From a virus, in UHGV virus genome UHGV-1763989: a DNA stretch of 13,792 nt; one strand, 5' to 3'. Of this stretch, positions 1 to 13,001 are shown in pieces. Numbering within the stretch: the first letter of the stretch is position 1; each line of letters begins with the position of its first letter. A program made the translations under genes and the position numbers. The notes beneath the pieces were generated by a model that saw only the letters and a list, made by a program, of their open reading frames with translations, was not told where the DNA came from and did no database searches.

Positions 1-72
1 AAGCGGATAACGTTCATAGAATTTATTAATCAAAAGTGCTTGATCGAATTTTGTTGCGTCATGATTCTTCAT
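1..72 (-). CDS. Partial CDS (N-terminus only; continues beyond left edge), hypothetical protein
   Basis: ATG at 72..70 preceded by GGGAGG 8 nt upstream; frame stays open to position 1 (MKNHDATKFDQALLINKFYERYPL...). Not in ORF track because it runs off the window. Confidence 0.4.
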   Translation of the reverse strand, partial: MKNHDATKFDQALLINKFYERYPL

Positions 73-111
73 CCGTACACCTCCCGGAAAACGTGCGCCA
101 CATAGAGCGCA

Positions 112-318
112 CTAATGATTAGCCAGGCTTTCGAACTGGCGGTTAGTCGTATCAAAATCGTCTACTATTTTGTCCAGTATCCCGTAAGAATGAGAAACCA
201 GCGAGTTAAATTCATCATCACTGGTTACCGGTACAGGGACAAATCTAATCCCGGCATGTGCAAGACTGTTTGCCATTTCAAGACATTTGCGTATTTCTGC
301 AGGCGATACTTTATTCAT
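112..318 (-). CDS. Hypothetical small protein (68 aa)
   Basis: ATG at 318..316 with GGAGG 8 nt upstream; same strand and tight packing as neighbours. No recognisable motif. Confidence 0.55.
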   Translation of the reverse strand: MNKVSPAEIRKCLEMANSLAHAGIRFVPVPVTSDDEFNSLVSHSYGILDKIVDDFDTTNRQFESLANH

Positions 319-544
319 GTGTTAGTTCCTCCGGGTAACGTTTCAAAAAATTGGTGTAACCACAATATACGACAGGACCGTCATCACCGTATCTGAACAT
401 AACCTTAAAACCACGACCTGCTCTGTAGACGTTGAGCACTTTTACAAATACCTGTGGTTTATTTACATCACGACAAAACCTTTTATTAATCAGGTCCGCG
501 CGTAGTTTACACAGTAAGTTATCTACACTCATCGCCACCACCAT
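311..544 (-). CDS. Hypothetical small protein (about 73-77 aa; start uncertain)
   Basis: ORF-track start at 553 is a TTG; first ATGs are at 544 and 532. Stop overlaps next gene start (311-318). No recognisable motif. Confidence 0.45.
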   Translation of the reverse strand: MVVAMSVDNLLCKLRADLINKRFCRDVNKPQVFVKVLNVYRAGRGFKVMFRYGDDGPVVYCGYTNFLKRYPEELTHE

Positions 545-668
545 TCGAAACAAAGACGACCGATCCAGAATGCGCGGTACGGCCCGTCATACCACAGTTT
601 GAAATAACCCCACTTACTGTAACTGTTCCAGCTTACGGCGAACCAGTACCCGGCACATTTTAGTTTCA

Positions 669-839
669 TTACGGGTTTTCCTTAATATACTTAGCCAGTT
701 TTTCACCTTTATTCAATTTCTGAATTAAAAGCGTATCAGATAAAGAACATGGTGGATTAACCACTATCCAGTTATTTTCAACAGTAATTTGATGACCAGC
801 AGCACGTAAACGTTTAACCAGTTGTTCTATTTCTTTCAT
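669..839 (-). CDS. Unlisted small ORF (56 aa), hypothetical
   Basis: Hand-translated: ATG 839..837, GGGAGA 10 nt upstream, 2 nt after the stop of the HD gene; MKEIEQLVKRLRAAGHQITVENNWIVVNPPCSLSDTLLIQKLNKGEKLAKYIKENP. Below the 60-aa track threshold. Confidence 0.4.
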   Translation of the reverse strand: MKEIEQLVKRLRAAGHQITVENNWIVVNPPCSLSDTLLIQKLNKGEKLAKYIKENP

Positions 840-841
840 AA

Positions 842-1459
842 TCACAGATCTCCCATCGCTTTAACCAGTGCGTCGTAGTGTTTGTCAAACGCGGTTAACT
901 GGACGTTCGTTAGTTTGTATTTGGCTTTAAACAATTCACGCTCAACAAGCGCGTATAACTCCTGATTACTGGCGTCTGACAGGTGAGCAAGCATGAGTTG
1001 TTTTTCAGCCAGGTATGTTACAGCAAACTTCGGATCGTGTCGGACAATTGAAGAGGTGTTATCCAGCAGATCACACAGTTTTATAGTTTTCACCACAGGT
1101 TCAGCCCGTGATAAATGGTCGATATCCCGTGCTTTACGCTTAACACGGTTGCCGTGGTGTGGACGACTCACATCAGTAAGCTGATCAACATAACGTGCCA
1201 CAGTCTCACCGAACTGCGAACACACATCACCCACGGTCACGGGCGTATCTTCAACGACGTCATGCAGCCAGGCAGCGGTAACCATATCCGGCGTACCACC
1301 ATAGCGTTTAACCAGTTCAGCAACGTTCCGGCAGTGGTTCACATATGGGTCGTTGGTGTACTTACGAAGTTGATCACCGTGTGCTGCTGTTGCGAATTGT
1401 TCAGGTGTCATCATAGTTTTTGATAGTGGTGAAAAACCAAGTTGAAGTTTAGTGCTCAT
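842..1459 (-). CDS. HD-domain phosphohydrolase, RelA/SpoT (Mesh1/small alarmone hydrolase)-like
   Basis: Motifs AAHGDQ ... DPYVNHCRNVA ... AAWLHDVVEDT ... FGETVARYV match the SpoT/RelA hydrolase HD signature. Track start 1465 is TTG; first ATG is 1459, 2 nt after upstream stop, AAAAGGG upstream. Confidence 0.8.
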   Translation of the reverse strand: MSTKLQLGFSPLSKTMMTPEQFATAAHGDQLRKYTNDPYVNHCRNVAELVKRYGGTPDMVTAAWLHDVVEDTPVTVGDVCSQFGETVARYVDQLTDVSRPHHGNRVKRKARDIDHLSRAEPVVKTIKLCDLLDNTSSIVRHDPKFAVTYLAEKQLMLAHLSDASNQELYALVERELFKAKYKLTNVQLTAFDKHYDALVKAMGDL

Positions 1460-1461
1460 AT

Positions 1462-1725
1462 TCAATACCCTTTTAATTTTCTACACTCAGGACAGCGCCA
1501 TCTACCTTTTTGATAAACTCGCGCATGACCACGTTTACATTTATTGGTTACCAGTGATATACCGAGACGTGACGCTTTAATGTGCACCGCTTCAACGTCC
1601 CGGCGAAGGTAATACGCTATTTCGTCCGCACTGATCTTTCCTGCATTAATTTTTAATAACGCCAGATCTCGTGCGGACCATTTCAAACCGTTACGAGGGA
1701 ACCTGTTAGTCGAATACTCATACAC
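1462..1725 (-). CDS. Small HTH DNA-binding protein with C-terminal zinc-ribbon-like Cys/His cluster (start uncertain)
   Basis: WSARDLALLKINAGKISADEIAYYLRRDVEAVHIKASRLGI resembles GcrA/sigma-70 region-4-type HTH; C-terminus CKRGH...CPEC. Track start 1857 is GTG and overlaps the upstream gene by 140 nt; GTG at 1725 has AAAAGG 7 nt upstream, ATG at 1797 is the alternative. Confidence 0.55.
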   Translation of the reverse strand: MYEYSTNRFPRNGLKWSARDLALLKINAGKISADEIAYYLRRDVEAVHIKASRLGISLVTNKCKRGHARVYQKGRWRCPECRKLKGY

Positions 1726-2206
1726 GAACACACCTTTTACGAAGCTGTATGGCGCGATTATTGGCCTGCTGGAGAACCATCTTCCATCCCACAACATCGT
1801 GCATATCAGATGAGCACGACTGATTGGAGAATTTGACCAACATTGTTTCAGCCACACCAGCTAAACTATCAAGTTCGCTGGCCCGTACTTCAGCCAGGAA
1901 AGAGTCGGTGGCTGGAGTTTCAGTGAGCTCACTAACCCAGTCGGGTCCAAATTCTTCTGCGCACATCTTATCGAACTCACGCTCAGATTCTTTCAGCTTT
2001 GCATTCTCCGCCGCCAGAGCCGCGCACTTGGCCTCAAGGTTATCAATCGTGATTCCAGCAGAACGACACTCCCGCAACGCCGTTTCTAGTTTTGATTCAA
2101 GTTCAGCAAATTTACGCGCCAGATATTCAGCGTTTGTTTCGTTAACTTTCAGGTCGCCCGGAATACATTTACCACGAAGAAAACCTTCCATTTCATATAC
2201 AGTCAT
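1718..2206 (-). CDS. Hypothetical protein, predicted coiled-coil (162 aa)
   Basis: ATG start verified; heptad-like Ala/Leu/Glu/Lys-rich segment (AELESKLETALRE...LEAKCAALAAENAKLKESEREF). No catalytic motif recognised. Confidence 0.6.
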   Translation of the reverse strand: MTVYEMEGFLRGKCIPGDLKVNETNAEYLARKFAELESKLETALRECRSAGITIDNLEAKCAALAAENAKLKESEREFDKMCAEEFGPDWVSELTETPATDSFLAEVRASELDSLAGVAETMLVKFSNQSCSSDMHDVVGWKMVLQQANNRAIQLRKRCVRV

Positions 2207-2431
2207 TTAACGCACCTCGACATCAATTATTAAATCTTCTGGTACTGTCACCACAACGCGGTCGTTTTCGCAAAATGGTGACAGCGGTTCCTCTTCCGGT
2301 TGTAAGCGAATGGTAAGTGTTGCCCCGTGGTAATTGATATAGCGTACCCAATACCAATCGTTAAACACTTCAATCTTGTCACCCGGTTTAATATCACGGG
2401 CAACGGTTGGATTTATCAGTCGGATAGTCAT
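2207..2431 (-). CDS. Hypothetical protein (74 aa)
   Basis: ATG start; ATGA overlap with upstream gene stop; same strand, dense packing. Confidence 0.55.
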   Translation of the reverse strand: MTIRLINPTVARDIKPGDKIEVFNDWYWVRYINYHGATLTIRLQPEEEPLSPFCENDRVVVTVPEDLIIDVEVR

Positions 2432-2724
2432 ACTTTCACCTCACGGTTAGAACAGCCACGTTCAATCATCCAATCCTGAACAGGAAAGCGACTACCGAAT
2501 ACTTTTGTTTCTTTATCGTCACAGAAACGCCAGTTTTCCGCTTCAGGCCAGTTTAATTTAACATGGTGTTCTGCCTGTTTTTGATCATCAACATCGACCA
2601 AAGCAACAAGCGTTGCACCTTTTTCAACATGTCCTGTACACCACCACGCGAGAATCTTTTCAGTAGGCGGGTAATTGATCGGACGATAATCATCGGTTGG
2701 TTGATACCAAGAGATCCATTTCAT
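2428..2724 (-). CDS. Hypothetical protein (98 aa)
   Basis: ATG at 2724; TGATG overlap with upstream gene stop. No motif recognised with confidence. Confidence 0.6.
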   Translation of the reverse strand: MKWISWYQPTDDYRPINYPPTEKILAWWCTGHVEKGATLVALVDVDDQKQAEHHVKLNWPEAENWRFCDDKETKVFGSRFPVQDWMIERGCSNREVKV

Positions 2725-2924
2725 CAGAACACCTTTTTAATTAATTGATAGATCAGTACAAGAATCGACAGTACCAAGTAAAAAGGCCAGAAGATCGTGA
2801 TTAGCACAAAACAAATTATTTGAATTTTCCAACCCGGGTTAATTCGTGTTAATTTTGCATCAATGTAATCTAATAATGCATTCAGAACACCCAGTATCAG
2901 ATACAATGACAATAATTTAATCAT
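2724..2924 (-). CDS. Small hydrophobic membrane protein (66 aa, two predicted TM segments)
   Basis: Sequence is almost entirely hydrophobic (LLSLYLILGVLNALL ... IICFVLITIFWPFYLVLSILVLIYQLI); ATG start, coupled to neighbours. Confidence 0.6.
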   Translation of the reverse strand: MIKLLSLYLILGVLNALLDYIDAKLTRINPGWKIQIICFVLITIFWPFYLVLSILVLIYQLIKKVF

Positions 2925-3085
2925 TTCTTTTTACTCCCGGTTAGTTTAGCAATCCAACGATTTTCATTAACGCTGGGAAAACTGTTATTGAACTTACACT
3001 GACGTTCTTCTTCTTCTTTTGTCAACGGTTTAAATTTAGAACGACAGGTCAATGTACCGTAAATTGATGTTAAGTTGTCTGACAT
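2921..3085 (-). CDS. Unlisted small ORF (54 aa), hypothetical
   Basis: Hand-translated: ATG 3085..3083 with AAAGGAG 9 nt upstream; stop TGA overlaps next ATG (ATGA at 2924..2921); MSDNLTSIYGTLTCRSKFKPLTKEEEERQCKFNNSFPSVNENRWIAKLTGSKKK. Confidence 0.45.
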   Translation of the reverse strand: MSDNLTSIYGTLTCRSKFKPLTKEEEERQCKFNNSFPSVNENRWIAKLTGSKKK

Positions 3086-3088
3086 AAA

Positions 3089-3277
3089 CTAGTCTCCTTT
3101 AGTGCGCAGGTGGTTTTTCCAGCGGTTTTGCGCCGCGCTGGGCTTTTTGCAAAAACCACAATCCATCATCCCGTAATATTTTATTAACCCCATTCGTCGG
3201 TTGCTGAGTCTCACCCACTGCCAGACGCCGGGACCGTTTCTACGAACTAACAGAATCTTTGCTTTACGGTTTTTCAT
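3089..3277 (-). CDS. Small basic protein (62 aa), hypothetical
   Basis: ATG start; 4-nt overlap with ParB-like gene stop; Arg/Lys-rich. Confidence 0.5.
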   Translation of the reverse strand: MKNRKAKILLVRRNGPGVWQWVRLSNRRMGLIKYYGMMDCGFCKKPSAAQNRWKNHLRTKGD

Positions 3278-4041
3278 AACCGGTGCTCCTTCAGTGCTTT
3301 TAACGCTTCAAACTGTTCAGCAGTAAGTTCAACCAGGACTTTACCACCTTCCTGGCGGGTTGCAGACCATTCACCACGGATTGCTTCCACTGCAGACCGT
3401 ACCAGTTTAGCGGGTGGACGACGCGTGACTACAGGTTCTTTATCACCTGCTTTAAACTGGCGAATGGCTGCTGATGCGCTGATTTCACCATTCTGGATCC
3501 GGCGTTTAAGTTCCAGCGGCATATCAAGAATATTCAGTTGTTCGTAAACGTGCTGAACGGTTTTACCGACCTGTGTAGCGATCTGCTCAACACTCATGCC
3601 ATATGAACGGAAACGACCGTAAATAACAGCACGTTCAACAGGGGACCACGGTTTACCTTCATTACCTTTTAACAGTGTCAGGGTCTGTTGTAGTTCGTCA
3701 CCGGACGATTCAACAACATCTACTGTCAGAATCGGCGTCCCGGCTTCAATAGCTGCCAATACGCCACGTAAACGATGCTCACCATCCTGGACATACGGAA
3801 CACCGTCAACAACCTGTACCACGATGGGTGGAACGAAATCGCCGTTGGTATAAGCCTGACGAAAGTTTTCAATGTGTGCCAGTGCTGCTTCAGTTTCCCA
3901 GTAGTTGTCGGTAAACACACCGCGTGGGTTATGTCCTGGACGAATCTTGATAATACGCGGATCAATGCGATATGCGTTACCACGTTTTACGTTGGTTTTA
4001 TCGGTATCAGACAGCTTGCGAAGGGAGTTAATGTTAGCCAT
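3274..4041 (-). CDS. ParB-like N-terminal domain protein with HTH
   Basis: ParB-box-like IRPGHNPRG and VQDGEHRLRG (cf. GERRxRA), followed by HTH-like MSVEQIATQVGKTVQHVYEQL. ATG at 4041; own promoter upstream. Confidence 0.8.
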   Translation of the reverse strand: MANINSLRKLSDTDKTNVKRGNAYRIDPRIIKIRPGHNPRGVFTDNYWETEAALAHIENFRQAYTNGDFVPPIVVQVVDGVPYVQDGEHRLRGVLAAIEAGTPILTVDVVESSGDELQQTLTLLKGNEGKPWSPVERAVIYGRFRSYGMSVEQIATQVGKTVQHVYEQLNILDMPLELKRRIQNGEISASAAIRQFKAGDKEPVVTRRPPAKLVRSAVEAIRGEWSATRQEGGKVLVELTAEQFEALKALKEHRL

Positions 4042-4047
4042 TTGTGT

Positions 4048-4076
4048 TTAGCCTCATGTGTGTTAACTGAGGCTAA
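4048..4076. promoter_or_regulatory. Perfect 9-bp inverted repeat (TTAGCCTCA-N11-TGAGGCTAA), candidate operator
   Basis: Arms 4048-4056 and 4068-4076 are exact reverse complements; lies between the predicted -10 and the ParB-like start codon and covers its GAGG ribosome-binding site. Confidence 0.5.
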
Positions 4077-4115
4077 TTATCGGGGAGGTTTGGTAATCTG
4101 TCAAGAATTATTTTA
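4076..4115 (-). promoter_or_regulatory. Sigma70-like promoter with A/T-rich upstream element (internal promoter for ParB-like gene)
   Basis: Minus strand AAAATAATTCTTGACAGATTAC: -35 TTGACA (4104..4099), 17-nt spacer, -10 GATAAT (4081..4076). The 22-nt element is identical to the copy at 11014-11035. Confidence 0.6.
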
Positions 4116-4508
4116 AGGATATGGAACCCACACAGTTAAACCAGCTTTCAACATGCGACGATGCATATCAGCAGTACCACGCCCACCGGGGAACACAACA
4201 CCGTATGTAGGACGTGGCTCACCCTCTAACATCGCCTGATTACGTTGATGACCTGCAACAGCGTTATAAGCCCCGTGCTTACCCTGTTTTACAACCGCAC
4301 CAGGTACAGTCAGATCGTCCCACGCTGCCGGGCAACTACGCACAGGAATACCGTGTAATTGCGCCCATTGCTTACACAGGTTATCAACACCTGACGCACC
4401 ACCTTCAATTAGTTCGGTAACCGGAAATTGTTTGTGAAGTAGTCCTAACGCGGAAAACACTGCTGTTCTGTCGTTAAAGTCACGACCACCTGTGACGACA
4501 ATTATCAT
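4113..4508 (-). CDS. DUF2493-like protein (SLOG/LOG-like Rossmann fold)
   Basis: IIVVTGGRDF ... EGGASGVDNL ... GIPV ... VVFPGGRGTADM matches the DUF2493/SLOG pattern (GGR near N-terminus, PGGxGT near C-terminus). ATG start; ATGA overlap with next gene. Confidence 0.75.
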   Translation of the reverse strand: MIIVVTGGRDFNDRTAVFSALGLLHKQFPVTELIEGGASGVDNLCKQWAQLHGIPVRSCPAAWDDLTVPGAVVKQGKHGAYNAVAGHQRNQAMLEGEPRPTYGVVFPGGRGTADMHRRMLKAGLTVWVPYP

Positions 4509-5185
4509 TGTTTATTAGCCTCAAATACAGCGCGAGCAAAACCACGCGGGGTTAATGAACGTAACTGTTTAGTTGTTTCAGACTTACCACCCAGATATTT
4601 CCAGCCCCAGAAGAAACCAATATTAATCGGTCCAGGACGTTTTTCAGGCATTCTGAAACCGTTACCGAACCACAGACATGTTTTCTTCGTGTATCCGTCA
4701 AACATCGGCATTTTAGGGTGAAAAGGTTTATCATCTGTTGTCATATAACCGCCATATTCCCACGGATGAAAATAAGCGTCAGGTGTCCCCATCATTTCAG
4801 GACGTGATAAAGCACCGACAGGGTTTTCGACCATCCAGGGTACATCATAACGTTCTCCAAGTTCCCGGATTAGTTTTGCGTTTGCCAGTGCATACTGTAG
4901 TTCAGCGTCATCCCGGTCATGTTGTGAACCGCTTTGAGCAAACAGGGTGCAATCCGGGAAACCAAAAATAATCGACGGTAAAGGTGTTCCCAGTATTTCC
5001 TGCTTAATTGCAAATTGTGGGTCAATCCACTGATTAACGTAATGAAGATTGGGGTGATCAGCTTTAATAAAATATTCCCCGTGATTAGCGGAATCAGCAT
5101 TAAAACAATAAACCTGATAACCATGTATCGCCCACGGTAAACCCATAATCCCGGAACCGTCGAACAATGACCAGACAATTTTCAT
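4505..5185 (-). CDS. DNA (cytosine-5)-methyltransferase-like protein, atypical and short (226 aa)
   Basis: SLFDGSG (motif I-like, res 6-12), FGFPDCTLFAQSG (motif IV-like, PDCT in place of PCQ, res 77-80), MVENPVG (motif VI-like ENV, res 120-122); spacing parallels M.HhaI-type enzymes, but no obvious target-recognition domain. Confidence 0.65.
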   Translation of the reverse strand: MKIVWSLFDGSGIMGLPWAIHGYQVYCFNADSANHGEYFIKADHPNLHYVNQWIDPQFAIKQEILGTPLPSIIFGFPDCTLFAQSGSQHDRDDAELQYALANAKLIRELGERYDVPWMVENPVGALSRPEMMGTPDAYFHPWEYGGYMTTDDKPFHPKMPMFDGYTKKTCLWFGNGFRMPEKRPGPINIGFFWGWKYLGGKSETTKQLRSLTPRGFARAVFEANKQ

Positions 5186-5397
5186 CCTTCTGTCTCCTCG
5201 ACGATCCTCGTGATTTTAACCGGCGCGATTGTTACTTTTCTGCAATTGAAACCTTGATCACGAAGTGCTTTAAGTGCAACACCAGCCATGTAAGTTGAAC
5301 TGAACAGAGTAGCTTCACTGATATCAACCCAGGTAATCCGGGTATCAATATGTGCATAACGGTCTTCTTTTTTGATTACAGCACCGAATTCAGTCAT
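5182..5397 (-). CDS. Hypothetical protein (71 aa)
   Basis: ATG start; 4-nt overlap with downstream gene; no motif recognised. Confidence 0.5.
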   Translation of the reverse strand: MTEFGAVIKKEDRYAHIDTRITWVDISEATLFSSTYMAGVALKALRDQGFNCRKVTIAPVKITRIVEETEG

Positions 5398-5587
5398 GAT
5401 CGTTTTTCACTCCCCACATGCAAGCACCAATTGATGCAGCAGCCGCTAATAATCCAAGACCCGCCAGAAACCACCACGGTGTTTCCGCATGATTACCACG
5501 GGTCATTAGTCCGACAATACAAGACGCGAGTGTTACGGATACAAGAAATACAATAACAGTAATTAAACGGTCAAATATGTTTTTCAT
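5390..5587 (-). CDS. Small membrane protein (65 aa, two predicted TM segments)
   Basis: Track ORF starts at a GTG (5632); internal ATG at 5587 has AAGGAG 7 nt upstream. MKNIFDRLITVIVFLVSVTLASCIVGLM ... WWFLAGLGLLAAAASIGACMWGV is strongly hydrophobic. Confidence 0.6.
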   Translation of the reverse strand: MKNIFDRLITVIVFLVSVTLASCIVGLMTRGNHAETPWWFLAGLGLLAAAASIGACMWGVKNDHD

Positions 5588-5618
5588 AACAATCACTCCT
5601 TGTTCACTTGATGTACAG

Positions 5619-5660
5619 ACTATAGCGCACACATCTGTAATTCGTCAAGAATTATTTTAC
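5619..5660 (-). promoter_or_regulatory. Sigma70-like promoter with A/T-rich upstream element (drives small membrane protein gene)
   Basis: Minus strand AAAATAATTCTTGACGAATTAC: -35 TTGACG (5648..5643), 18-nt spacer, -10 TATAGT (5624..5619); in the 90-bp gap after the primase gene. Confidence 0.6.
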
Positions 5661-5677
5661 ACATCCTTGTGCAATGA

Positions 5678-8032
5678 CTAACTATTACTCGCAGGTGGAA
5701 AAGGCACTACATTAGCTGTTGACTGAAAAGGGAGAAGACGAATACCCCTGAAACCGTTTAGTCGAACGTTATTTATATTAACAACGTCTTTTTTCACTTT
5801 ACCACGAAGGGTGGATTTAAACGCCCGACTAAATGCAGTTTTAGTCATTGCTGGACCACCTTCCTGTGTTTTCCAGAGACGATAACGACCATAGAGTTCT
5901 TCAGTGTGCACCTCACCATCAGATACCAATTCGCAACAATCTCTGATAAAACTTCTAAGTGGTGATTGTTGATCCATAATTTCCTGACGTTCTTCCAGAC
6001 TTGCTTTTGGTTCAGTAAACCGTCCGTTTGCACGTAACCGTTGTAAACCTTCAATCGCCCAGTTACAGATCCCCGGTAGTTCTTTCATCAGTCGTGCTTC
6101 CAGAGTGGTATCTTCACGACCCAGGAACGAAATGTTGAACGGCAGGATCAGCAAACGGTTAGCCATTGCACCGGAATCATCAGCAAATGCAGGTATGTTG
6201 TTAGCAGCCAGTGTCATACGTCCAGGTAAACGACCGTTCCATGCACCTTTATACTTACGATTAACCGGAATCGCATCACAACCTGTAATAGATTTGAAAC
6301 GGTCCAGAATTCGGTTGCGGTCAGGCCCGGACACACTGTGAGCATCACCAATAAACAGCACAGATTTATCCAGCACAGTTTCAAGTACCGCATCACTGGC
6401 TAAACCCTCCAGTGTGATCCCTGCATACGCTTCATCACCTACCAGTGCCTGAATGATGCGACCAATCGTACCTTTACCGGAACGTGGCGCACCAATCAAC
6501 AACATCGCTTTCTGATAGTCGTACGAGTTGACAAGCATGTAACCCAACCATTCCTGCAACAGTGCAATACGTTCCTGATCACCTTCCAGAGTTGTATTAA
6601 GAAACTGTTCAAATGCTGGCGCACGGGCAAACGGATCGTAGCTATACGGTAAAATACTGGTCGTAAAGAAATCAGGGTTATGTGCATCACATTTACCCGT
6701 GTGTACATCCAGTATCCCGTTCTGACAAACAATATAGTGTGATACATCAACGCCGGGCCATGTTCCAAGCTCACGATCAGCGCGTGTGAATAAATACGAC
6801 AAAACCTTGTACGTACCGTTAATTACGTCAGCTTTTGGTTCGCTGGCGAGCATTGCCATAGATATCTGATGTTTCAGTTCATCTTCACTCACACGTTCCC
6901 ACACGCGACCGTTGAACCGGTACGGCTGTTGCTGGACAAAAATCAATGTGTTGTTTGGATAATAGTTATTAACGAACGTGGATGCGTTAACCGTATGGTT
7001 TGAACCATATGCACCTTCACCGGGTTTCACACTCATGTACGCAGGTGTTCCACCATTAGGAACGACGGTAGGCGCTGGTGTGACTGCTTTCATCAGTTCT
7101 GGTGTCATTGTCGGTTGACTACGATACACAGTATCACAACGTTCCACAGCGCCCAAAATCGTGTTTTCACGGTAATCCTGACGATCTGTCCATTTACCAC
7201 GAACCAGCCCAGAACGGTTAAACAAACGTTCAATACGTTCGCAATCTTTCCCTGTCCAGAACGCAAGGTGTGAGCACAGGGCAGCATCAGCGGCAGATGC
7301 ATTGTAGTCTTTTCCCTGGTCGCTGGGGTATGACACAGACAGGCGTTCAACGTTTGCATTCCACAGATCTGCAAATGACGCTTTATTACCAAATACTGAA
7401 GCAGCACTGGACGAATTTAACGCCATTTTAATCAGTTCATCATCGTCTGCCGGACCTGACCAGTCATCACAGGGTGCTGTTGTCCAGCGTGCGGAACGGT
7501 CTGAACGGATACGACCATACCGGGCAATAGAATCATGAATGCCCTGGGTATAATCAATATCAACATCGCCATTACCCGTGAGCGTCATCGCGACGAAACG
7601 ATCACGCCAGTACATTTCCAGCCCGGTTTTCTGGTCGTTCAGACTGTTAAAACCTTCCGGTATGCTGGTATAAGCACAGATGATATGCAAACCTGTTCCT
7701 GACTGGCTGACTTCAGTGTAAGCATTTGGAAAACGGTTTACGAATTCATGCGCCAGTGGTGACCATGTGGCTGTTGCCTGATCTACCAGACAGTTATCGA
7801 CATCAATAAAGAAATAAGGGTCATTTTCTGTGAATACAAAACCAACACCAGACATGCCGTACATTTGCGCCATACCTAACGCGGTGTGATAGTCAGACCA
7901 GTCGTTAGGGTTAGTGGTACTGGCTTTATAACCGTGTACCGGGCTGTATGGTACTTTCGTTGGTTTTGGACGATCGGCAACTGTCTCAAGTCGCCACATG
8001 ACCCACTGTTTACGGTTCAGTAACCCTTTCAT
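5678..8032 (-). CDS. DNA primase-polymerase / D5-type SF3 helicase fusion (784 aa)
   Basis: N-terminus has primase-polymerase-like features (KVPYSPVHGYKAST ... GVGFVF ... FFIDVDNC); C-terminus has Walker A GAPRSGKGT and Walker B-like VLFIGDA. ATG at 8032. Confidence 0.85.
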   Translation of the reverse strand: MKGLLNRKQWVMWRLETVADRPKPTKVPYSPVHGYKASTTNPNDWSDYHTALGMAQMYGMSGVGFVFTENDPYFFIDVDNCLVDQATATWSPLAHEFVNRFPNAYTEVSQSGTGLHIICAYTSIPEGFNSLNDQKTGLEMYWRDRFVAMTLTGNGDVDIDYTQGIHDSIARYGRIRSDRSARWTTAPCDDWSGPADDDELIKMALNSSSAASVFGNKASFADLWNANVERLSVSYPSDQGKDYNASAADAALCSHLAFWTGKDCERIERLFNRSGLVRGKWTDRQDYRENTILGAVERCDTVYRSQPTMTPELMKAVTPAPTVVPNGGTPAYMSVKPGEGAYGSNHTVNASTFVNNYYPNNTLIFVQQQPYRFNGRVWERVSEDELKHQISMAMLASEPKADVINGTYKVLSYLFTRADRELGTWPGVDVSHYIVCQNGILDVHTGKCDAHNPDFFTTSILPYSYDPFARAPAFEQFLNTTLEGDQERIALLQEWLGYMLVNSYDYQKAMLLIGAPRSGKGTIGRIIQALVGDEAYAGITLEGLASDAVLETVLDKSVLFIGDAHSVSGPDRNRILDRFKSITGCDAIPVNRKYKGAWNGRLPGRMTLAANNIPAFADDSGAMANRLLILPFNISFLGREDTTLEARLMKELPGICNWAIEGLQRLRANGRFTEPKASLEERQEIMDQQSPLRSFIRDCCELVSDGEVHTEELYGRYRLWKTQEGGPAMTKTAFSRAFKSTLRGKVKKDVVNINNVRLNGFRGIRLLPFQSTANVVPFPPASNS

Positions 8033-8035
8033 AAT

Positions 8036-8209
8036 TTACGCTCCGAACTGACGTTCAGCAGCCATCAGTTTGACCAGGTTGATAGCAGATCGCCCGGTAA
8101 GCAGATTACGTTTAACATGAATTTCAGTAACGTTCAGACGTTTAGCAACAGCCTCAATACCGTGGTTATCAATCAGTTTTTGCAGACGTTTAATGCGTTC
8201 AGTATTCAT
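8036..8209 (-). CDS. Unlisted small ORF (57 aa), putative HTH-like DNA-binding protein
   Basis: Hand-translated: ATG 8209..8207 overlaps upstream stop (ATGA), own stop 3 nt before primase ATG; MNTERIKRLQKLIDNHGIEAVAKRLNVTEIHVKRNLLTGRSAINLVKLMAAERQFGA. Confidence 0.5.
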   Translation of the reverse strand: MNTERIKRLQKLIDNHGIEAVAKRLNVTEIHVKRNLLTGRSAINLVKLMAAERQFGA

Positions 8210-8697
8210 TGTTTAATCCATTTTTCAAATTGTGAAGGATGAGTGATGAAACGAAATTCACCACCTGCGTTTTCAACAATCGCACCGAAAGTGGCCTGTG
8301 CTTGTGCACGTCTGTCACTCGGGGTCATGTGCCAGTCAGGGCGTTTCATTTCGGCAGCAATAAAGACACCCACTTTCGAACCGATCATATCCGGTGTAAC
8401 GATTTTGGTTTTAATGCCGATGTAGTCGCTTGACTTCATAACAGCGTTGATTTTCGCACTGGTGTTACCAAGACCATAACGAACCATCATTCCTTTTTCG
8501 TTTTTCAGAGCACCTGAGTTATTACGCCAGATACGTTGCCCTGCGCGTGCCGCAATCAGTTCACACTCTTTACTGGTGGCGCTTTCACTTACACCGTCTT
8601 CGTGTGGTGTTCCATCAGGCTGATAAAGCGCGTATAACTCGTACAACGCCATCTGACTAATACCGTGACGAATCGCCCATTGTTCAAGCGTTGTCAT
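8206..8697 (-). CDS. PD-(D/E)xK nuclease, VRR-NUC-like
   Basis: WRNNSGAL ... SDYIGI ... GVFIAAEMKRP fits a D...ExK arrangement seen in VRR-NUC-type phage nucleases. ATG start; ATGA overlap with exonuclease stop. Confidence 0.65.
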   Translation of the reverse strand: MTTLEQWAIRHGISQMALYELYALYQPDGTPHEDGVSESATSKECELIAARAGQRIWRNNSGALKNEKGMMVRYGLGNTSAKINAVMKSSDYIGIKTKIVTPDMIGSKVGVFIAAEMKRPDWHMTPSDRRAQAQATFGAIVENAGGEFRFITHPSQFEKWIKQ

Positions 8698-9200
8698 AAT
8701 GTTTTAGTCCCACTAGTAAGATATTTAATCTGGTGTAAACAGTCGTCTAACGCATTGTGGTAAGTACCGTCACGGGTAAATTCTTTCGGGTTAATACCCA
8801 GCAAATCAACAGCGGTACGAACATCACGGACGTTCCAGAACTTCCACGGGCAACGAACACCAATCGCATTAAACCATGCTTCCAGAATAGTGATATCGAA
8901 TGTGGAACCATTGCCCCACGGTTTAGCATCGTGCCAGATGAATTTGGCAAAATCTTTAGCAACCTGAACAGGATCGGCAGTACCACCAAAAGCATCTTTT
9001 TGTGCTTGTTCTGACTGCTGCGACCACCACTTCATAGTGTCAGGGTCTGTGTGACCGTAAGCGAGCGCATTAAAACCCATTGATGCGTAAAACGTTTCAC
9101 CAATGTTACCCTGACGATCAAAGTAAACAGCGCCAATTGACAGCACTGCACAACCTGGTTTAGTACCACACGTCTCAATGTCAACCATCAAATCACGCAT
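8694..9200 (-). CDS. DnaQ-like (DEDD) 3'-5' exonuclease
   Basis: Exo I motif MVDIETCG near N-terminus and Exo III-like YHNALDDC near C-terminus; ATG start with AAGGA upstream. Confidence 0.8.
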   Translation of the reverse strand: MRDLMVDIETCGTKPGCAVLSIGAVYFDRQGNIGETFYASMGFNALAYGHTDPDTMKWWSQQSEQAQKDAFGGTADPVQVAKDFAKFIWHDAKPWGNGSTFDITILEAWFNAIGVRCPWKFWNVRDVRTAVDLLGINPKEFTRDGTYHNALDDCLHQIKYLTSGTKTL

Positions 9201-9214
9201 TACAGTTCCTTACG

Positions 9215-9241
9215 TTTAAAATATTTCTATGCAGATTACCA
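9215..9241 (+). promoter_or_regulatory. Degenerate copy of the repeated promoter element, opposite orientation (function unclear)
   Basis: AAAATATTTCTATGCAGATTACC matches AAAATAATTCTTGACAGATTAC at about 18 of 22 positions but has TATGCA in place of TTGACA and no convincing -10; sits in the 41-bp gap between helicase and exonuclease genes. Confidence 0.3.
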
Positions 9242-10909
9242 TCAGATTAATGAACTTGCAACCCTTGCGGCGAGTTCATTAGCTTCACGAGTACGTAACC
9301 CCTGAGCGCTAAGTACATCAACACCAAACACCCTGTAAAACATCTTGTAAGCGTCATCAACGGGTATACCTTTATCACGCTGAATACCCGCCCATGTGGT
9401 GATCATACTGCGTAATTTACGCTGTGCATCGTTCATTGCCTGAATGTTTTTCATTGCACTGTAAGCTGCAATAGGGGGTGCACCAGCGTTTAACATTTGT
9501 TCTTTTACTGCAACAGGGTCACGGTCGATTATCACCACTGCCCGGCGTAATTCTTCCAATTCTTCAGGTGTCAGTTCACGTAAATTACCTTCTACACGAT
9601 CCGGGCCTGAGCGTTCGGCTTTTTCAGGAATATGACCACAATACGGGCAGCACGGAAGACCAGACGGATAAGGCTTCAGACACGGTGGAATACCATTATC
9701 AGGATCACCCTTGTTTGTACATGTTGTATTACTGTTCCCACTGCTGTTAGATGAACGACGATCACGGTCATCTAAAGACCAGTTGTAGTGCTGATCGGGA
9801 AGTGGAAAACCACGGGCCAGAAATCGACGAACATTACCGACTTTATCAATAATCAGTGCTTTTTTACCGGGTTTGAAACGCAATGGTCGACCCATCTGTT
9901 GTACAAACAAAGAGTAAGATTCTGTTGGACGGTCCATTACAGCGCATTCCATCGCCGGGCAATCGTACCCTTCACCGAATAAATCGTTGTTACATAGCAC
10001 GAGTGTTTTACGTCGTTCAAAACGTTCCAGAATATCCGCTCGTTCCTGATTGCTGTTTCGTGAGCTGATCGCCTCTGCAGGAATGCCAGCATCGCGAAAT
10101 TCTTTTGCGAGTGCTTCAGCAGAATCTACGTCACACGTAAACACAACAGTGAGTAAACCGTCTGCGTACGTTTTCCACGTACTGACGGTATCACCAACGA
10201 TGTTTGAATCTTCCATCGCTTTTTTTAACGCAGAGGGTTTGTAATCACCCGTAGTATGGGAAATCATTTCTGCAGTTAATTCCAGGTCTGTTTCAGCCAT
10301 GATCAGGCGATAATCAGCCAGGTGTTGTTGGCTGATTAACTCACGCATTGATGGACCGATGATCATCTGATCTGCGTAACCTGACGCATGACGACCCAAG
10401 CCTTTACCGTCAGCACGGATCGGTGTAGCTGTAACACCCAGACCTTTAGCGTTAGGGAATTTTTCCCGGCAGTCTCCCCACTGTGTGCCACGTACCAGGT
10501 GATGCGCTTCATCGCTGAATACAAGAGACACGTCGTTGTACCATCGTTCGTACTGTTTTGTTCTTAACGTTTGTGAACTGGTAATAACGATGTCAGCGCC
10601 GGGGGAATAGGTACTGTAACCAAGCGTTTTCATCTGCTGATTAGTTGCAAACTTAACAGTATCTTTTTGCGCTATAAATCTGTGTGGTAATCCCTGGCGA
10701 GCAACAGCCATTGCGATTTGACTAACCAGTTCTTTACGGTGTGCCTGGATGACTTTTACACCGTCGGATTTTACCAGTTCTGCAAGCGCTCGGGTCTTTC
10801 CTGCACCCGTGGGAAGTACAAGAATCACGTCATCAGCACCGTTCGACCATGCCTGGCGCACGTTGTTAACGGCATCTTGTTGATAGTGACGAAGTGGTTG
10901 TTGACTCAC
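9242..10909 (-). CDS. SF2 DEAH-box helicase with C-terminal Cys-rich extension (555 aa)
   Basis: LRHYQ, Walker A VLPTGAGKT, Walker B FSDEAHH, motif III TATP, motif VI QQMGRPLR; C-terminal CLKPYPSGLPCCPYCGH cluster. GTG start at 10909 with AAGGAAAG upstream, no in-frame ATG nearby. Confidence 0.85.
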   Translation of the reverse strand: MSQQPLRHYQQDAVNNVRQAWSNGADDVILVLPTGAGKTRALAELVKSDGVKVIQAHRKELVSQIAMAVARQGLPHRFIAQKDTVKFATNQQMKTLGYSTYSPGADIVITSSQTLRTKQYERWYNDVSLVFSDEAHHLVRGTQWGDCREKFPNAKGLGVTATPIRADGKGLGRHASGYADQMIIGPSMRELISQQHLADYRLIMAETDLELTAEMISHTTGDYKPSALKKAMEDSNIVGDTVSTWKTYADGLLTVVFTCDVDSAEALAKEFRDAGIPAEAISSRNSNQERADILERFERRKTLVLCNNDLFGEGYDCPAMECAVMDRPTESYSLFVQQMGRPLRFKPGKKALIIDKVGNVRRFLARGFPLPDQHYNWSLDDRDRRSSNSSGNSNTTCTNKGDPDNGIPPCLKPYPSGLPCCPYCGHIPEKAERSGPDRVEGNLRELTPEELEELRRAVVIIDRDPVAVKEQMLNAGAPPIAAYSAMKNIQAMNDAQRKLRSMITTWAGIQRDKGIPVDDAYKMFYRVFGVDVLSAQGLRTREANELAARVASSLI

Positions 10910-10950
10910 GTATCTTTCCTTCAGTTAATATCGAATCGTGAAAAAAGTTT

Positions 10951-10990
10951 AAAATAGTTCTTGACGTATTGCAACTTATTCCTCTAACAT
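10951..10990 (+). promoter_or_regulatory. Sigma70-like promoter (upstream member of a tandem pair for the rightward genes)
   Basis: AAAATAGTTCTTGACG: -35 TTGACG 10961-10966, 18-nt spacer, -10-like TAACAT 10985-10990. Confidence 0.5.
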
Positions 10991-11013
10991 CTGCATCAAC
11001 GAAAGGCGAGTGT

Positions 11014-11053
11014 AAAAATAATTCTTGACAGATTACACAACACCTTTTAAAGT
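11014..11053 (+). promoter_or_regulatory. Sigma70-like promoter with A/T-rich upstream element (rightward genes)
   Basis: AAAAATAATTCTTGACAGATTAC: -35 TTGACA 11025-11030, 17-nt spacer, -10-like TAAAGT 11048-11053; AAGAGGA ribosome-binding site then ATG at 11086. Confidence 0.6.
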
Positions 11054-11085
11054 TAGCGATAACCAAACAACAAGAGGAAAACGTA

Positions 11086-11856
11086 ATGTTCGAAGTTAAA
11101 TTACTTGTAACTGCTCCGGGTCTGGAAACTGCGATCAACAATCTGGCAAATGCTATTGCGACTGGTGCTGCACCACTCATGACTGCTCAGGATGATGGTA
11201 TCACTAAAGAAACCGTGACAGTCGTTGCTGAATCACTGCCTGTTGTATCAGCAACAACTGAAGATATTGACGATAACGAAACCAGCACTGAAGAGTTCGA
11301 CAAATGGGGTTTGCGCCACGATCCACGTATCCACACTGACAGTAAATCCCTGAACAAAGGTGATGGTCTGTGGCGTCAAAAGAAAAAACTGGATGAAGCG
11401 TTTGTTGACGGTGTTAAACGTGAACTTATTGCTGAAGCAGTTGAAGCAGGGCGTTATACCGGACCTGCAGAACTTGCACCGGGTTATGTAGCACCTGTTG
11501 ATCCTGCTCCAGCGGTTCCTGCCGCTCCGGTAGCTCCAGTTGTACCAGCAGCACCGGCTGCACCAGTCGCGCCTGTCGAGCAACCTGTAACCACGGATCC
11601 AGCTAAAGTTTATAATACCCAGGTTCTTCAGTCAGCACTAATGCAGATGTTTGGACAAATTACGGGTGACCGTGCCGCGCCATTAAGTCAGCGAATCATG
11701 GGACTGTATGAAACTCAGAACGTGATGCAGATTGACGACCCAGTAAAACTGAAATCTATCATCGAACTGATTGAACGCATTAACGCGGCCCCGGCTGATG
11801 CTGAAAACATTGTTGGTCAGGCTGAATCTGTTAAACAAATGGGTGGGGCATTCTGA
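11086..11856 (+). CDS. Hypothetical protein with central Pro/Ala/Val-rich linker (256 aa)
   Basis: ATG with AAGAGGA upstream; two regions separated by APVDPAPAVPAAPVAPVVPAAPAAPVAPV. Function not recognised. Confidence 0.7.
   Translation: MFEVKLLVTAPGLETAINNLANAIATGAAPLMTAQDDGITKETVTVVAESLPVVSATTEDIDDNETSTEEFDKWGLRHDPRIHTDSKSLNKGDGLWRQKKKLDEAFVDGVKRELIAEAVEAGRYTGPAELAPGYVAPVDPAPAVPAAPVAPVVPAAPAAPVAPVEQPVTTDPAKVYNTQVLQSALMQMFGQITGDRAAPLSQRIMGLYETQNVMQIDDPVKLKSIIELIERINAAPADAENIVGQAESVKQMGGAF
11491..11590 (+). repeat. Imperfect tandem repeat encoding the Pro/Ala/Val linker
   Basis: Reiterated gc(a/t)cc(a/g)g(c/t)(t/a)g units (e.g. gcaccggctgcaccagtcgcgcctgtc) inside the 256-aa CDS. Confidence 0.5.
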
Positions 11857-13001
11857 TGACAAGTCACGCTACCTTTAGTGCCAGTGGATCAAAACGTTGG
11901 TTAGCTTGTCCGGGTAGCGTTCAACTGTCACAGCGGATTGATTATGTAGAACCATCATCACCCAGTGCTGAAGAAGGTACAGCCGGGCACTGGGTGTTAG
12001 AACAGAAGATTAAAGGTAAACAGCCATTAATGCCGTGTATTGCTCCTAACGGTGTTCAGGTTACTGAAGACATGCACATTTACGCGGATGACTTTATAGC
12101 AGATGTTCTTTCAGTTGGTGCGAAACTTGATCCGCTGTTTTCAGAAGTTCGCATTCACATTGACTGGTTGTTACCCGGTCAGTACGGAACCTGTGATTAT
12201 CGCTGGTATGACTTTAATACTGATACGCTTTATGTATGGGATTATAAATACGGTCATGTTGCAGTTGACGCAGTTGATAACTCACAGGGGGTCTATTATG
12301 CACTGGACCAACGTTGCATCGACACTGTTAAGCGCGTTGTGTTCACAATTGTTCAGCCACGGGCTTATCACCCACTCGGACCTGTAAGACGATGGGAGTT
12401 TAACCTGGCAACATTGATGGAATGGGCTGAACGATTTAAACACGGGTTTAACGAAGCACATAAACCAGACGCACCTTTAAATGTTGGTAGTCATTGTCAT
12501 TACTGTCCGGCGCGTGGTATGTGTCCGGCGATGTATGAGAGGGTTTTAGAATTGGCTACTGTTCTTGATGCACCACCATCACTTACGCCAGAAGAAGTAG
12601 CGCGTCGTCTGGCACTTCTTGAAGAACTGTATACGCGTTCTTCTGAAGCAAAAACAGCGTTACATACTCAGGGGTTACATTTTGTTCGTATGGGTAAAGT
12701 TTTACCGGGTTTTAAACTTGCAACAAAACAAACCCGACGTCAGCTTACGGACGAAGGAAAACTGATCGGTGCTGCACCCATGTTTGGTGTAAACCCTGAA
12801 ACATTGTACGAACGTAAATTAAAACCATTGTCAACACTGGAAAAATCACTGCCTCCGGCACTTGTTGACATGTGTACGACAAAACCAGAAGGTCAGCCAG
12901 TTTTAGTACCTGACAGTGACCCGCGTAAAGGTCACAGCACACTGGCAGAATCTGTTTTTAATAAACCCGTGACGATGCCGACTGGCGCACGTCCACTTTA
13001 A
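11856..13001 (+). CDS. DUF2800-like PD-(D/E)xK nuclease (Cas4/RecB-like, Cys cluster)
   Basis: N-terminus MTSHATFSASGSKRWLACPGS typical of DUF2800; WDYKYGH nuclease core; C-terminal CHYCPARGMCPA with an N-terminal Cys suggests an Fe-S cluster. ATG overlaps upstream stop (TGATG). Confidence 0.8.
   Translation: MTSHATFSASGSKRWLACPGSVQLSQRIDYVEPSSPSAEEGTAGHWVLEQKIKGKQPLMPCIAPNGVQVTEDMHIYADDFIADVLSVGAKLDPLFSEVRIHIDWLLPGQYGTCDYRWYDFNTDTLYVWDYKYGHVAVDAVDNSQGVYYALDQRCIDTVKRVVFTIVQPRAYHPLGPVRRWEFNLATLMEWAERFKHGFNEAHKPDAPLNVGSHCHYCPARGMCPAMYERVLELATVLDAPPSLTPEEVARRLALLEELYTRSSEAKTALHTQGLHFVRMGKVLPGFKLATKQTRRQLTDEGKLIGAAPMFGVNPETLYERKLKPLSTLEKSLPPALVDMCTTKPEGQPVLVPDSDPRKGHSTLAESVFNKPVTMPTGARPL

Follow-up and report, generated by a model that had tools for sequence, protein, structure and literature searches.

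UHGV-1763989 is a virus genome from which we analyzed a stretch of 13,792 nucleotides (the window; one strand, 5′ to 3′). The part of interest is its left arm (positions 1–5660), a run of 18 genes between the primase gene (5678–8032) and the left edge, one of them cut by this edge. All 18 lie on the minus strand, which carries every real gene in 1–10909; a divergent plus-strand operon begins at 11086. The arm is densely occupied: 13 of the 18 genes encode proteins of at most 100 amino acids, and the only gaps are at 73–111, 4042–4112, and 5588–5677. In this respect we agree with the initial annotation, which had described 112–5600 as packed with short open reading frames (ORFs) and had named an HD hydrolase, a SLOG-like, a methyltransferase-like, and a ParB-like protein. 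All four are present according to family, PHROG, or fold matches. The features that carry our argument are as follows.

842–1465, minus strand: small alarmone hydrolase of the RelA/SpoT-type HD family, PaSpo-like, core at 842–1411 (Pfam HD_4, E 5e-15)
3274–4041, minus strand: ParB-like protein with a putative N-terminal ParB/Srx domain containing a GEHRLRG box and a ParB helix-turn-helix (HTH) domain (HTH_ParB, E 2e-6)
4076–4114, minus strand: promoter of the operon from ParB to the left end, TTGACA-17-GATAAT at 4104–4076, within a 22-nt motif
4113–4508, minus strand: stand-alone SLOG protein (YspA/YAcAr, DUF2493), 131 amino acids (Pfam YAcAr PF10686, E 1e-19)
4505–5185, minus strand: compact orphan C5-cytosine DNA methyltransferase-like enzyme, 226 amino acids (PHROG 757 'DNA methyltransferase', E 1e-78)
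5619–5658, minus strand: promoter of the lipoprotein-orf71-methyltransferase-SLOG operon, TTGACG-18-TATAGT at 5648–5619

A megablast search against 50,697 phage records returned Escherichia phage KarinMuster_Bas82 (Bas82) as the best match of the window (96.4% identity, 86% coverage), followed by the Sashavirus/Nonanavirus siphoviruses PDP46, AVIO78A, Sasha, Sergei, Solent, and PJ16. Phage 9NA and Klebsiella relatives match at 77–79%. An exact-protein look-up led to two ENA metagenome contigs that are 100% identical to window 1–12924, one of them 54.8 kb long (Sashavirus). Phage 9NA is virulent and uses headful packaging, and the genomes of its group are mosaically related (PMC4153490). The extra 10 kb of 9NA/Sasha phages has been reported to lack recognizable function (PMC11990801).

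Gene Content of the Arm Varies between Conserved Flanks

We compared the arm with 16 relatives. A tblastn matrix covered 12 GenBank relatives, and ORF clustering, which took every minus-strand ORF between primase and left end, covered 13 genomes. In the matrix, primase, helicase, orf57, and orf163 occur in all 12 relatives with 79–100% identity and the exo168 exonuclease occurs in 10, whereas the genes at 112–3277 are patchy. Gene content is thus variable among close relatives while the flanks are conserved. By clustering, 75 ORF clusters fill the arm in the 13 genomes, and three of them are universal (ParB, orf71, and the lipoprotein). The methyltransferase is missing from Bas82, AVIO78A, and 536P12, and its Sasha allele is 51% identical; SLOG is missing from 9NA and present in 11 of the 13 clustered genomes.

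The strongest case of gene loss is a 58.4-kb contig (ENA ERZ27317858 k141_561431; L016) with replication genes at 95–97% nucleotide identity to those of the window. Its locus (9200–12700) contains no lipoprotein, orf71, methyltransferase, SLOG, hydrolase, Orf63-like, or exo168 exonuclease gene; parB is reduced to its last 106 nt, and DUF4376 and T5orf172/DUF723 genes stand there instead. Since L016 lacks them at this locus, the lipoprotein, orf71, and ParB are dispensable in this genome. We considered these three as indispensable core genes and rejected that assignment for the same reason.

Two further types of change can be followed at single sites. Compared with Bas82, the window has lost about 198 nt by deletion at an ATCATG microhomology (window 1390–1480; L001 4270–4560), and with them the small gene Bas82_0087. 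In the window, no gene separates SLOG from the ParB promoter, and this slot amounts to the 71-nt promoter gap; Sasha, 9NA, Carvaje, BU9, and SP069 have an HNH gene there, and AVIO78A and KP13-27 have a NADAR gene. When 20 cargo proteins of relatives were scanned with Pfam, only NADAR, the T5orf172/DUF723 protein, and a tailspike-N fragment were recognized. The patchy matrix, the three universal clusters among 75, and the losses in L016 agree with the initial annotation in calling the region accessory. That annotation had also proposed to compare gene content with related phages so as to find variable genes; by this comparison, the genes of the region are not conserved core genes.

A PaSpo-Type Alarmone Hydrolase

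The hydrolase has a core of 189 residues, or 205–207 with a fused leader. The initial annotation had taken 842–1465 as one gene, but this ORF is an in-frame fusion made by the deletion described above: its N-terminal 16–18 codons and its ribosome-binding site (RBS) derive from the deleted upstream gene Bas82_0087, and the hydrolase core covers 842–1411. It is a single-domain protein, with HD_4 and HD as the only Pfam families matched and neither a synthetase nor a regulatory domain. Among NCBIfam models it matches the N-terminal part of TIGR00691 spoT_relA (E 1.5e-20, below the curated cutoff). Its PDB matches are Lmo0812, human and fly MESH1, Rel/SpoT hydrolase domains, and bacterial small alarmone hydrolases (SAHs). 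The segments QLRKY, NHCRNVA, LHDVVEDT, and KLCDLLDN align with the catalytic and metal-binding motifs of Lmo0812 and human HDDC3/MESH1. The motifs R-K, H, HD, ED, and D..N correspond to MESH1 Arg24, His35, His61/Asp62, Glu65/Asp66, and Asp122/Asn126.

The closest characterized homologue is SSU5_099 (PaSpo) from Salmonella phage SSU5, with 52% identity over 145 residues (BLASTP, E 2e-45); of 346 phage records that contain a hydrolase homologue, SSU5 gives the best match once the 9NA group is set aside. PaSpo neutralized all five toxSAS toxins tested, namely, CapRel, PhRel, PhRel2, FaRel, and FaRel2 (Jimmy et al. 2020, PMC7229694, Table 1), and is routinely coexpressed to detoxify CapRelSJ46 and PhRel2. 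Some SAHs also reverse 3′-pyrophosphorylation of tRNA. Both the window protein and PaSpo are stand-alone phage HD_4 hydrolases that keep the metal-binding and catalytic motifs and belong to phages of the same host group. They differ in length (PaSpo has 213 residues) and the C-terminal 40–60 residues cannot be aligned; also, SSU5 is a 103-kb plasmid-like phage, whereas the window phage is a 55-kb virulent siphovirus. The initial annotation stated that no specific known anti-defense family could be recognized. Since the hydrolase is 52% identical to SSU5 PaSpo, this statement does not hold.

This PaSpo-type hydrolase most likely strips the 3′-pyrophosphate from (p)ppGpp, (p)ppApp, and pyrophosphorylated tRNA CCA ends. 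Such an activity would cancel the effects of toxSAS effectors such as CapRel, PhRel, and FaRel that would otherwise abort infection. Judged from its sequence, the hydrolase is a well-founded candidate for counter-defense and the best supported one in the arm. The Bas82 orthologue (Bas82_0088) is 100% identical across the 189-residue core.

Methyltransferase-Like and SLOG Proteins

The protein encoded at 4505–5185 matches no Pfam or NCBIfam model, PF00145 included, and PF00145 is detected in one of the 120 homologues listed. Since PDB sequence searches with this protein and with SLOG found nothing, we predicted both structures. The AlphaFold model of the methyltransferase-like protein (pLDDT 89.7) gave C5 DNA methyltransferases throughout its top 50 Foldseek PDB matches, including DNMT3A/B, the CP-933R prophage enzyme 3G7U, M.HaeIII, and DNMT1. 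The conserved motifs are kept as FDGSG (motif I), FPDCT (IV), ENPVG (VI), and RSLTPRGFARA (IX), and Cys79 in motif IV is invariant in a 27-member family alignment. The chain ends right after motif IX, and motif X (GNAV) was not recognized. Compared to Dcm, M.HaeIII, and DNMT3, the protein has the same fold (Foldseek probability 1.0, TM 0.5–0.58) and shares motifs I, IV (Pro-Cys), VI (ENV), and IX. In contrast to these enzymes, it is 226 residues long with a target-recognition insert of about 70 residues, has no partner nuclease, and falls below PF00145 detection.

Orphan C5-methyltransferases are a classical route of escape from restriction. The enzyme in the window most likely methylates phage DNA, which would let it escape from cytosine-sensitive restriction. 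We consider this role plausible and rank it second after the hydrolase. Among the relatives, PDP46 and PJ16 carry the methyltransferase with 97–99% identity. The 6-bp palindromes GGTACC, CCCGGG, and CAGCTG are strongly depleted in the window, L001, L003, and L015, with or without a C5-methyltransferase. Because the depletion is present regardless of the enzyme, it is uninformative on methyltransferase specificity.

The SLOG gene corresponds to Bas82_0080 in Bas82. The AlphaFold model of the SLOG protein (pLDDT 96.6) matches the folds of LOG TT1465, ShosA, DprA, and the Moco carrier protein (E ~2e-3). Invariant motifs of the family are TGGRD, GxAxGxD, and PGGxGTADM. The catalytic glutamate of the LOG motif PGGxGTxxE is not found in SLOG, where the sequence reads PGGRGTADM with Met in this position and a conserved Asp one residue earlier. 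ICP1 HelB joins DUF2493 to an SF1B helicase, and beyond this fusion we found almost nothing on DUF2493 in the literature.

Viral SLOGs have been predicted computationally to counter ADP-ribose-derived immune signals, and SLOG-NADAR neighborhoods have been noted (Iyer, Burroughs, and Aravind, PMC9503650). Phage NADARs are proven anti-DarTG1 factors (PMC11257639). Like the viral YpsA-like SLOGs of that prediction (Iyer, Burroughs, and Aravind 2022), the window protein is a stand-alone phage SLOG that lies beside NADAR in some relatives; unlike them, it is a YAcAr (YspA) protein by Pfam, with DprA and ShosA as equally near fold matches. The NADAR gene next to SLOG in two relatives fits the published SLOG-NADAR prediction. 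The logic of T4 AdfN (NADAR) against DarTG1 is also that of the hydrolase, a free-standing phage enzyme that would reverse the chemistry of a toxin, so that the hydrolase relates to toxSAS as NADAR relates to DarT1. In contrast to AVIO78A and KP13-27, the window itself carries no NADAR. The YspA-type SLOG may bind or cleave NAD- or ADP-ribose-derived immune signals, and it could be an uncharacterized enzyme, or a sponge, that clears Thoeris-type signals. A role of SLOG in counter-defense is speculative and ranks third.

Two Promoters Share a 22-nt Motif

The initial annotation had placed two internal promoters in the region. The two best minus-strand sigma-70 matches indeed lie in the two larger gaps, and both belong to a 22-nt motif, AAAATAATTCTTGACNNATTAC, that occurs four times in the window and not once in 200 shuffles. 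Promoter-like sites overall are not above chance (15 versus 22.5 expected). The copies are at 4093–4114 and 5637–5658 on the minus strand and at 10951–10972 and 11015–11036 on the plus strand, where the latter two precede the plus-strand operon. In 11 of the 13 loci fetched, among them 9NA, the exact motif recurs at these positions. Two host-type (sigma-70) promoters of one conserved class would drive the region: the promoter next to the primase would serve the lipoprotein, orf71, methyltransferase, and SLOG genes, and the second would serve ParB and thirteen mostly small cargo genes. From this promoter type we infer that the arm is expressed early.

A dyad, TAATTC-N5-GAATTA, surrounds the −35 element within the motif and is perfect at 5638–5654. 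A fifth, longer copy of the motif at 9205–9241 (plus strand) has TATGCA in place of a usable −35; it is in antisense orientation, with the exonuclease and helicase genes on either side. Because of the dyad around −35 and of this fifth copy without a usable −35, the sequence suggests that the motif may double as a protein-binding operator. A possible regulator would be the ParB-like protein, working as a CTP switch in the manner of KorB. If this is true, one circuit would extend over all motif-bearing operons of a virulent phage.

ParB-Like Protein, Lipoprotein, and Small Cargo Genes

The ParB-like protein aligns with Spo0J over residues 69–192, covering both domains (E 3e-7), matches PHROG 1033 (E 3e-60), and is present in all 13 clustered genomes. 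Its GEHRLRG patch keeps two of the three GERRxRA arginines; TIGR00180 scores under its cutoff and Pfam ParBc is unmatched. A search for a parS-like repeated palindrome found none, and the sole recurring dyad is the TAATTC-N5-GAATTA of the promoter motif. The remaining genes of the arm are listed below.

1–72, minus strand: 5′-terminal 24 codons of another small gene, truncated by the edge; RBS GGGAGG, ATG at 72–70
112–318, minus strand: homologue of lambda Orf63 (DUF1382), 68 amino acids (Pfam DUF1382 PF07131, E 2.4e-21)
311–553, 529–669, and 669–845, minus strand: three small genes of function-unknown PHROGs 36357, 34921, and 5649, in 3–4 of 13 genomes
1462–1797, minus strand: basic HTH and zinc-ribbon protein, ~87–111 amino acids (PHROG 323 'transcriptional regulator', E 5e-6)
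1718–2206, minus strand: Ead/Ea22/EaE-like coiled-coil protein (PHROG 614, E 1e-46)
2207–3277, minus strand: five small cargo genes, orf74, orf98, TM66, DUF2737, and basic orf62 (Pfam/PHROG scans)
2724–2924, minus strand: TM66 of this group, a two-helix membrane protein
2921–3085, minus strand: DUF2737 of this group
5182–5397, minus strand: orf71, found family-wide (PHROG 26050 alone; 13 of 13 clustered genomes, absent from L016)
5390–5587, minus strand: small membrane lipoprotein with lipobox LASC, 65 amino acids (PHROG 22517 'lipoprotein', E 4e-47)

Several boundaries differ from those of the initial annotation. Its left limit at 112 is not the end of the operon: a further gene starts at 72, and since it continues leftward, the operon extends past the window edge. 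In full this gene encodes 64 residues with an acidic C-terminus, and it is complete at L015 12853–13047 and as AVIO78A_104. The lipoprotein starts at 5587 rather than at 5632, downstream of its own promoter, with an ATG preceded by the RBS AAGGAG; in the annotation of Sasha, this protein carries a signal peptidase II site. The ORF given as 1462–1857 has its true start later, at about 1797 or 1725.

The lipoprotein looks like an exclusion function more than like an anti-defense function. In 11 of the 13 genomes (12 relatives and the window), a gene of about 70 codons lies directly downstream of primase. It is absent from the window, where the promoter follows primase at once (5588–5677).

The Orf63-like protein also matches PDB 8DSB (lambda Orf63, E 6e-10). 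A clear Orf63 homologue thus exists in a virulent 9NA-type siphovirus, and it occurs in 8 of the 13 genomes. We rejected the 'orf63' of the Silas screen as a report on lambda Orf63; the label follows that screen's own numbering. The HTH and zinc-ribbon protein (CxxGH...CxxC, isoelectric point 10.2), with an orthologue, Bas82_0086, that starts at MMLWDGRW, is a putative DNA-binding regulator. The Ea22-like protein has tblastn matches in 221 phage records, some annotated as Eae or ead/Ea22-like, and lambdoid, P22-like, and Stx phages have members of its family, with HK629 and HK106 at 78% nucleotide identity; PDB sequence searches found no match for it. Its ORF has lost the stop present in Bas82 (...FSNQ*), stays open for 33 more codons, and shares about 80 nt with the following gene (1718–1797).

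The G+C content drops to 0.37 at 2428–2924, a patch that holds orf98 and TM66. TM66 is found in none of the 12 GenBank relatives, but the contig collection lists it in 38 blocks. The orf98 family forms 21 clusters among 5.8 billion proteins. One homologue of orf98 comes from a P2/186-like E. coli prophage; its place there is the gpA-portal variable hotspot, and a YafO toxin gene lies two genes downstream of it. As a whole, the arm resembles the exo-xis/ea region of lambda and the nin-type moron regions of lambdoid and P22-like phages, which are high-turnover runs of small early genes, with direct homology in Orf63, Ead/Ea22, and DUF2737. Unlike these regions, it belongs to a virulent phage with no integrase or repressor and is attached to a primase/helicase block instead of exo/xis. 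The ParB-like, HTH and zinc-ribbon, Orf63-like, and Ea22-like proteins, the lipoprotein, and the small unknowns probably serve regulatory, host-manipulating, or exclusion functions.

A Swap-Prone Accessory Arm with Probable Counter-Defense Cargo

Homology, intact catalytic motifs, variable presence, and the promoter motif lead us to favor, with moderate confidence, the explanation that 1–5660 is a mosaic, swap-prone accessory arm with counter-defense cargo. The arm would form the flexible part of the leftward gene block, at its promoter-distal end, in a virulent Sashavirus/Nonanavirus phage of the 9NA/Sasha type, with E. coli and Salmonella as hosts. Its genes would turn over by gain, loss, and swaps, both at gene boundaries and through microhomology deletions, and temperate lambdoid and P22-like phages would be among the partners. 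Members of validated counter-defense families are the PaSpo-like hydrolase in the window and NADAR in two relatives; by support, the candidates within the arm rank as hydrolase, C5-methyltransferase, and SLOG. The anti-defense role that the initial annotation proposed for the region therefore holds in part: PaSpo homology supports it for the hydrolase, and it is plausible for the methyltransferase and SLOG, but as a general claim it is unsupported for most other genes.

Several observations weigh against a counter-defense role. For 11 of the 18 genes no family of known function was matched, and two genes of the arm are homologues of developmental genes from the exo-xis region of lambda (Orf63 and Ead/Ea22). 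PADLOC defense models gave zero matches among the ten larger proteins of the region, and NCBIfam returned only RelA/SpoT and ParB family signals, both under the curated cutoffs. The fold matches of SLOG are weak, with DprA, LOG, and ShosA equally close. For a phage, an alarmone hydrolase might do no more than prevent the stringent response of the host. Avoidance of restriction sites does not follow the methyltransferase, since relatives with and without the enzyme are alike. Finally, Bas82 was phenotyped in the BASEL completion paper and found markedly sensitive to restriction-modification and Old. This sensitivity exists although Bas82 has hydrolase, SLOG, and ParB in common with the window. 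Since Bas82 lacks the methyltransferase, its sensitivity says nothing on this enzyme. The panel used for Bas82 reportedly contained no toxSAS, Thoeris, or DarTG systems, and for this reason the Bas82 data do not refute the hypotheses on hydrolase and SLOG.

A rival view is that the arm, though accessory, works mainly to take over the host, tune development, and exclude other phages, and not to neutralize specific defenses. The hydrolase would then hold down (p)ppGpp, which would leave transcription and translation of the host at the service of the phage; the Orf63-like and Ea22-like proteins would tune host physiology as in lambda, the lipoprotein would block superinfection, the ParB-like and HTH and zinc-ribbon proteins would regulate phage genes, and the methyltransferase would have a regulatory or packaging role. 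Such a division of labor accords with the Orf63 and Ead/Ea22 homologies, with (p)ppGpp as the canonical substrate of RelA/SpoT hydrolase domains, with the lipobox and membrane topology of the lipoprotein, with the absence of any gain in robustness of Bas82 against restriction-modification or Old, and with the hydrolase being the sole known anti-defense family found by Pfam or PHROGs. It accounts less well for a hydrolase whose closest characterized homologue neutralizes toxSAS toxins, for NADAR at the same locus in sister genomes, and for a high gene turnover, as is typical of conflict genes. Moreover, because the phage is virulent, lysis-lysogeny tuning by exo-xis homologues would be of no obvious use. 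We regard this view as possible but rather unlikely. The enzymes could also be conserved core auxiliaries of replication and DNA metabolism, with ParB in segregation or packaging, SLOG as a DprA-like handler of single-stranded DNA, and the methyltransferase in control of replication or packaging. Their position directly downstream of primase and helicase, a promoter class shared with the recombination and polymerase operon, the DprA-like fold of SLOG, the DUF2493–helicase fusion in ICP1 HelB, and the presence of ParB, orf71, and the lipoprotein in every clustered genome speak in this direction. However, L016 does without the lipoprotein, orf71, methyltransferase, SLOG, and ParB at this locus despite nearly identical replication genes, 9NA lacks SLOG, and Bas82, AVIO78A, and 536P12 lack the methyltransferase, which makes a core function very improbable.

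We see next to no chance that the dense packing is an artifact of ORF calling with many short ORFs that are not genes. The starts of 311–553, 1462–1857, and 5390–5632 are indeed uncertain, and two ORFs overlap their neighbors by 80–140 nt. On the other hand, 15 of the 17 complete ORFs have a PHROG or Pfam match (the two without are TM66 and orf98), all of them have protein-level orthologues in related phages or contigs, the genes occupy one strand throughout with start/stop overlaps typical of operons, and independent gene callers give the same set on L015. As to the swap-prone arm with counter-defense cargo, two more specific proposals within it, that SLOG clears NAD- or ADP-ribose-derived immune signals and that the promoter motif is the operator of a phage regulator, have a small chance of being correct.

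The arm is a reasonable but ordinary target for screening. Counter-defense cargo in accessory arms is an expected phage pattern, and current concepts remain unchanged. The interest lies in the 9NA/Sasha group, which is poorly studied and is not covered by the papers on gene essentiality (HIDEN-SEQ) and accessory-gene screens, and in an arm that holds a close homologue of a validated toxSAS-neutralizing hydrolase. The identical hydrolase is available in the public BASEL phage Bas82, and relatives swap in a NADAR of the anti-DarTG1 family at the same locus. Since Bas82 is a community resource, the arm is unusually easy to test, and direct, cheap tests of alarmone-, ADP-ribose-, and restriction-based immunity are possible in E. 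coli.

Repeats and RNA Features

Within the region, we found no tRNA, Rfam family, or relevant tandem repeat. On the plus strand, a 27-nt tandem repeat (1.9 copies, 11506–11557) encodes a Pro/Ala/Val-rich linker in the first gene of the divergent operon. The Sasha annotation likewise marks tandem repeats, in neighboring genes.

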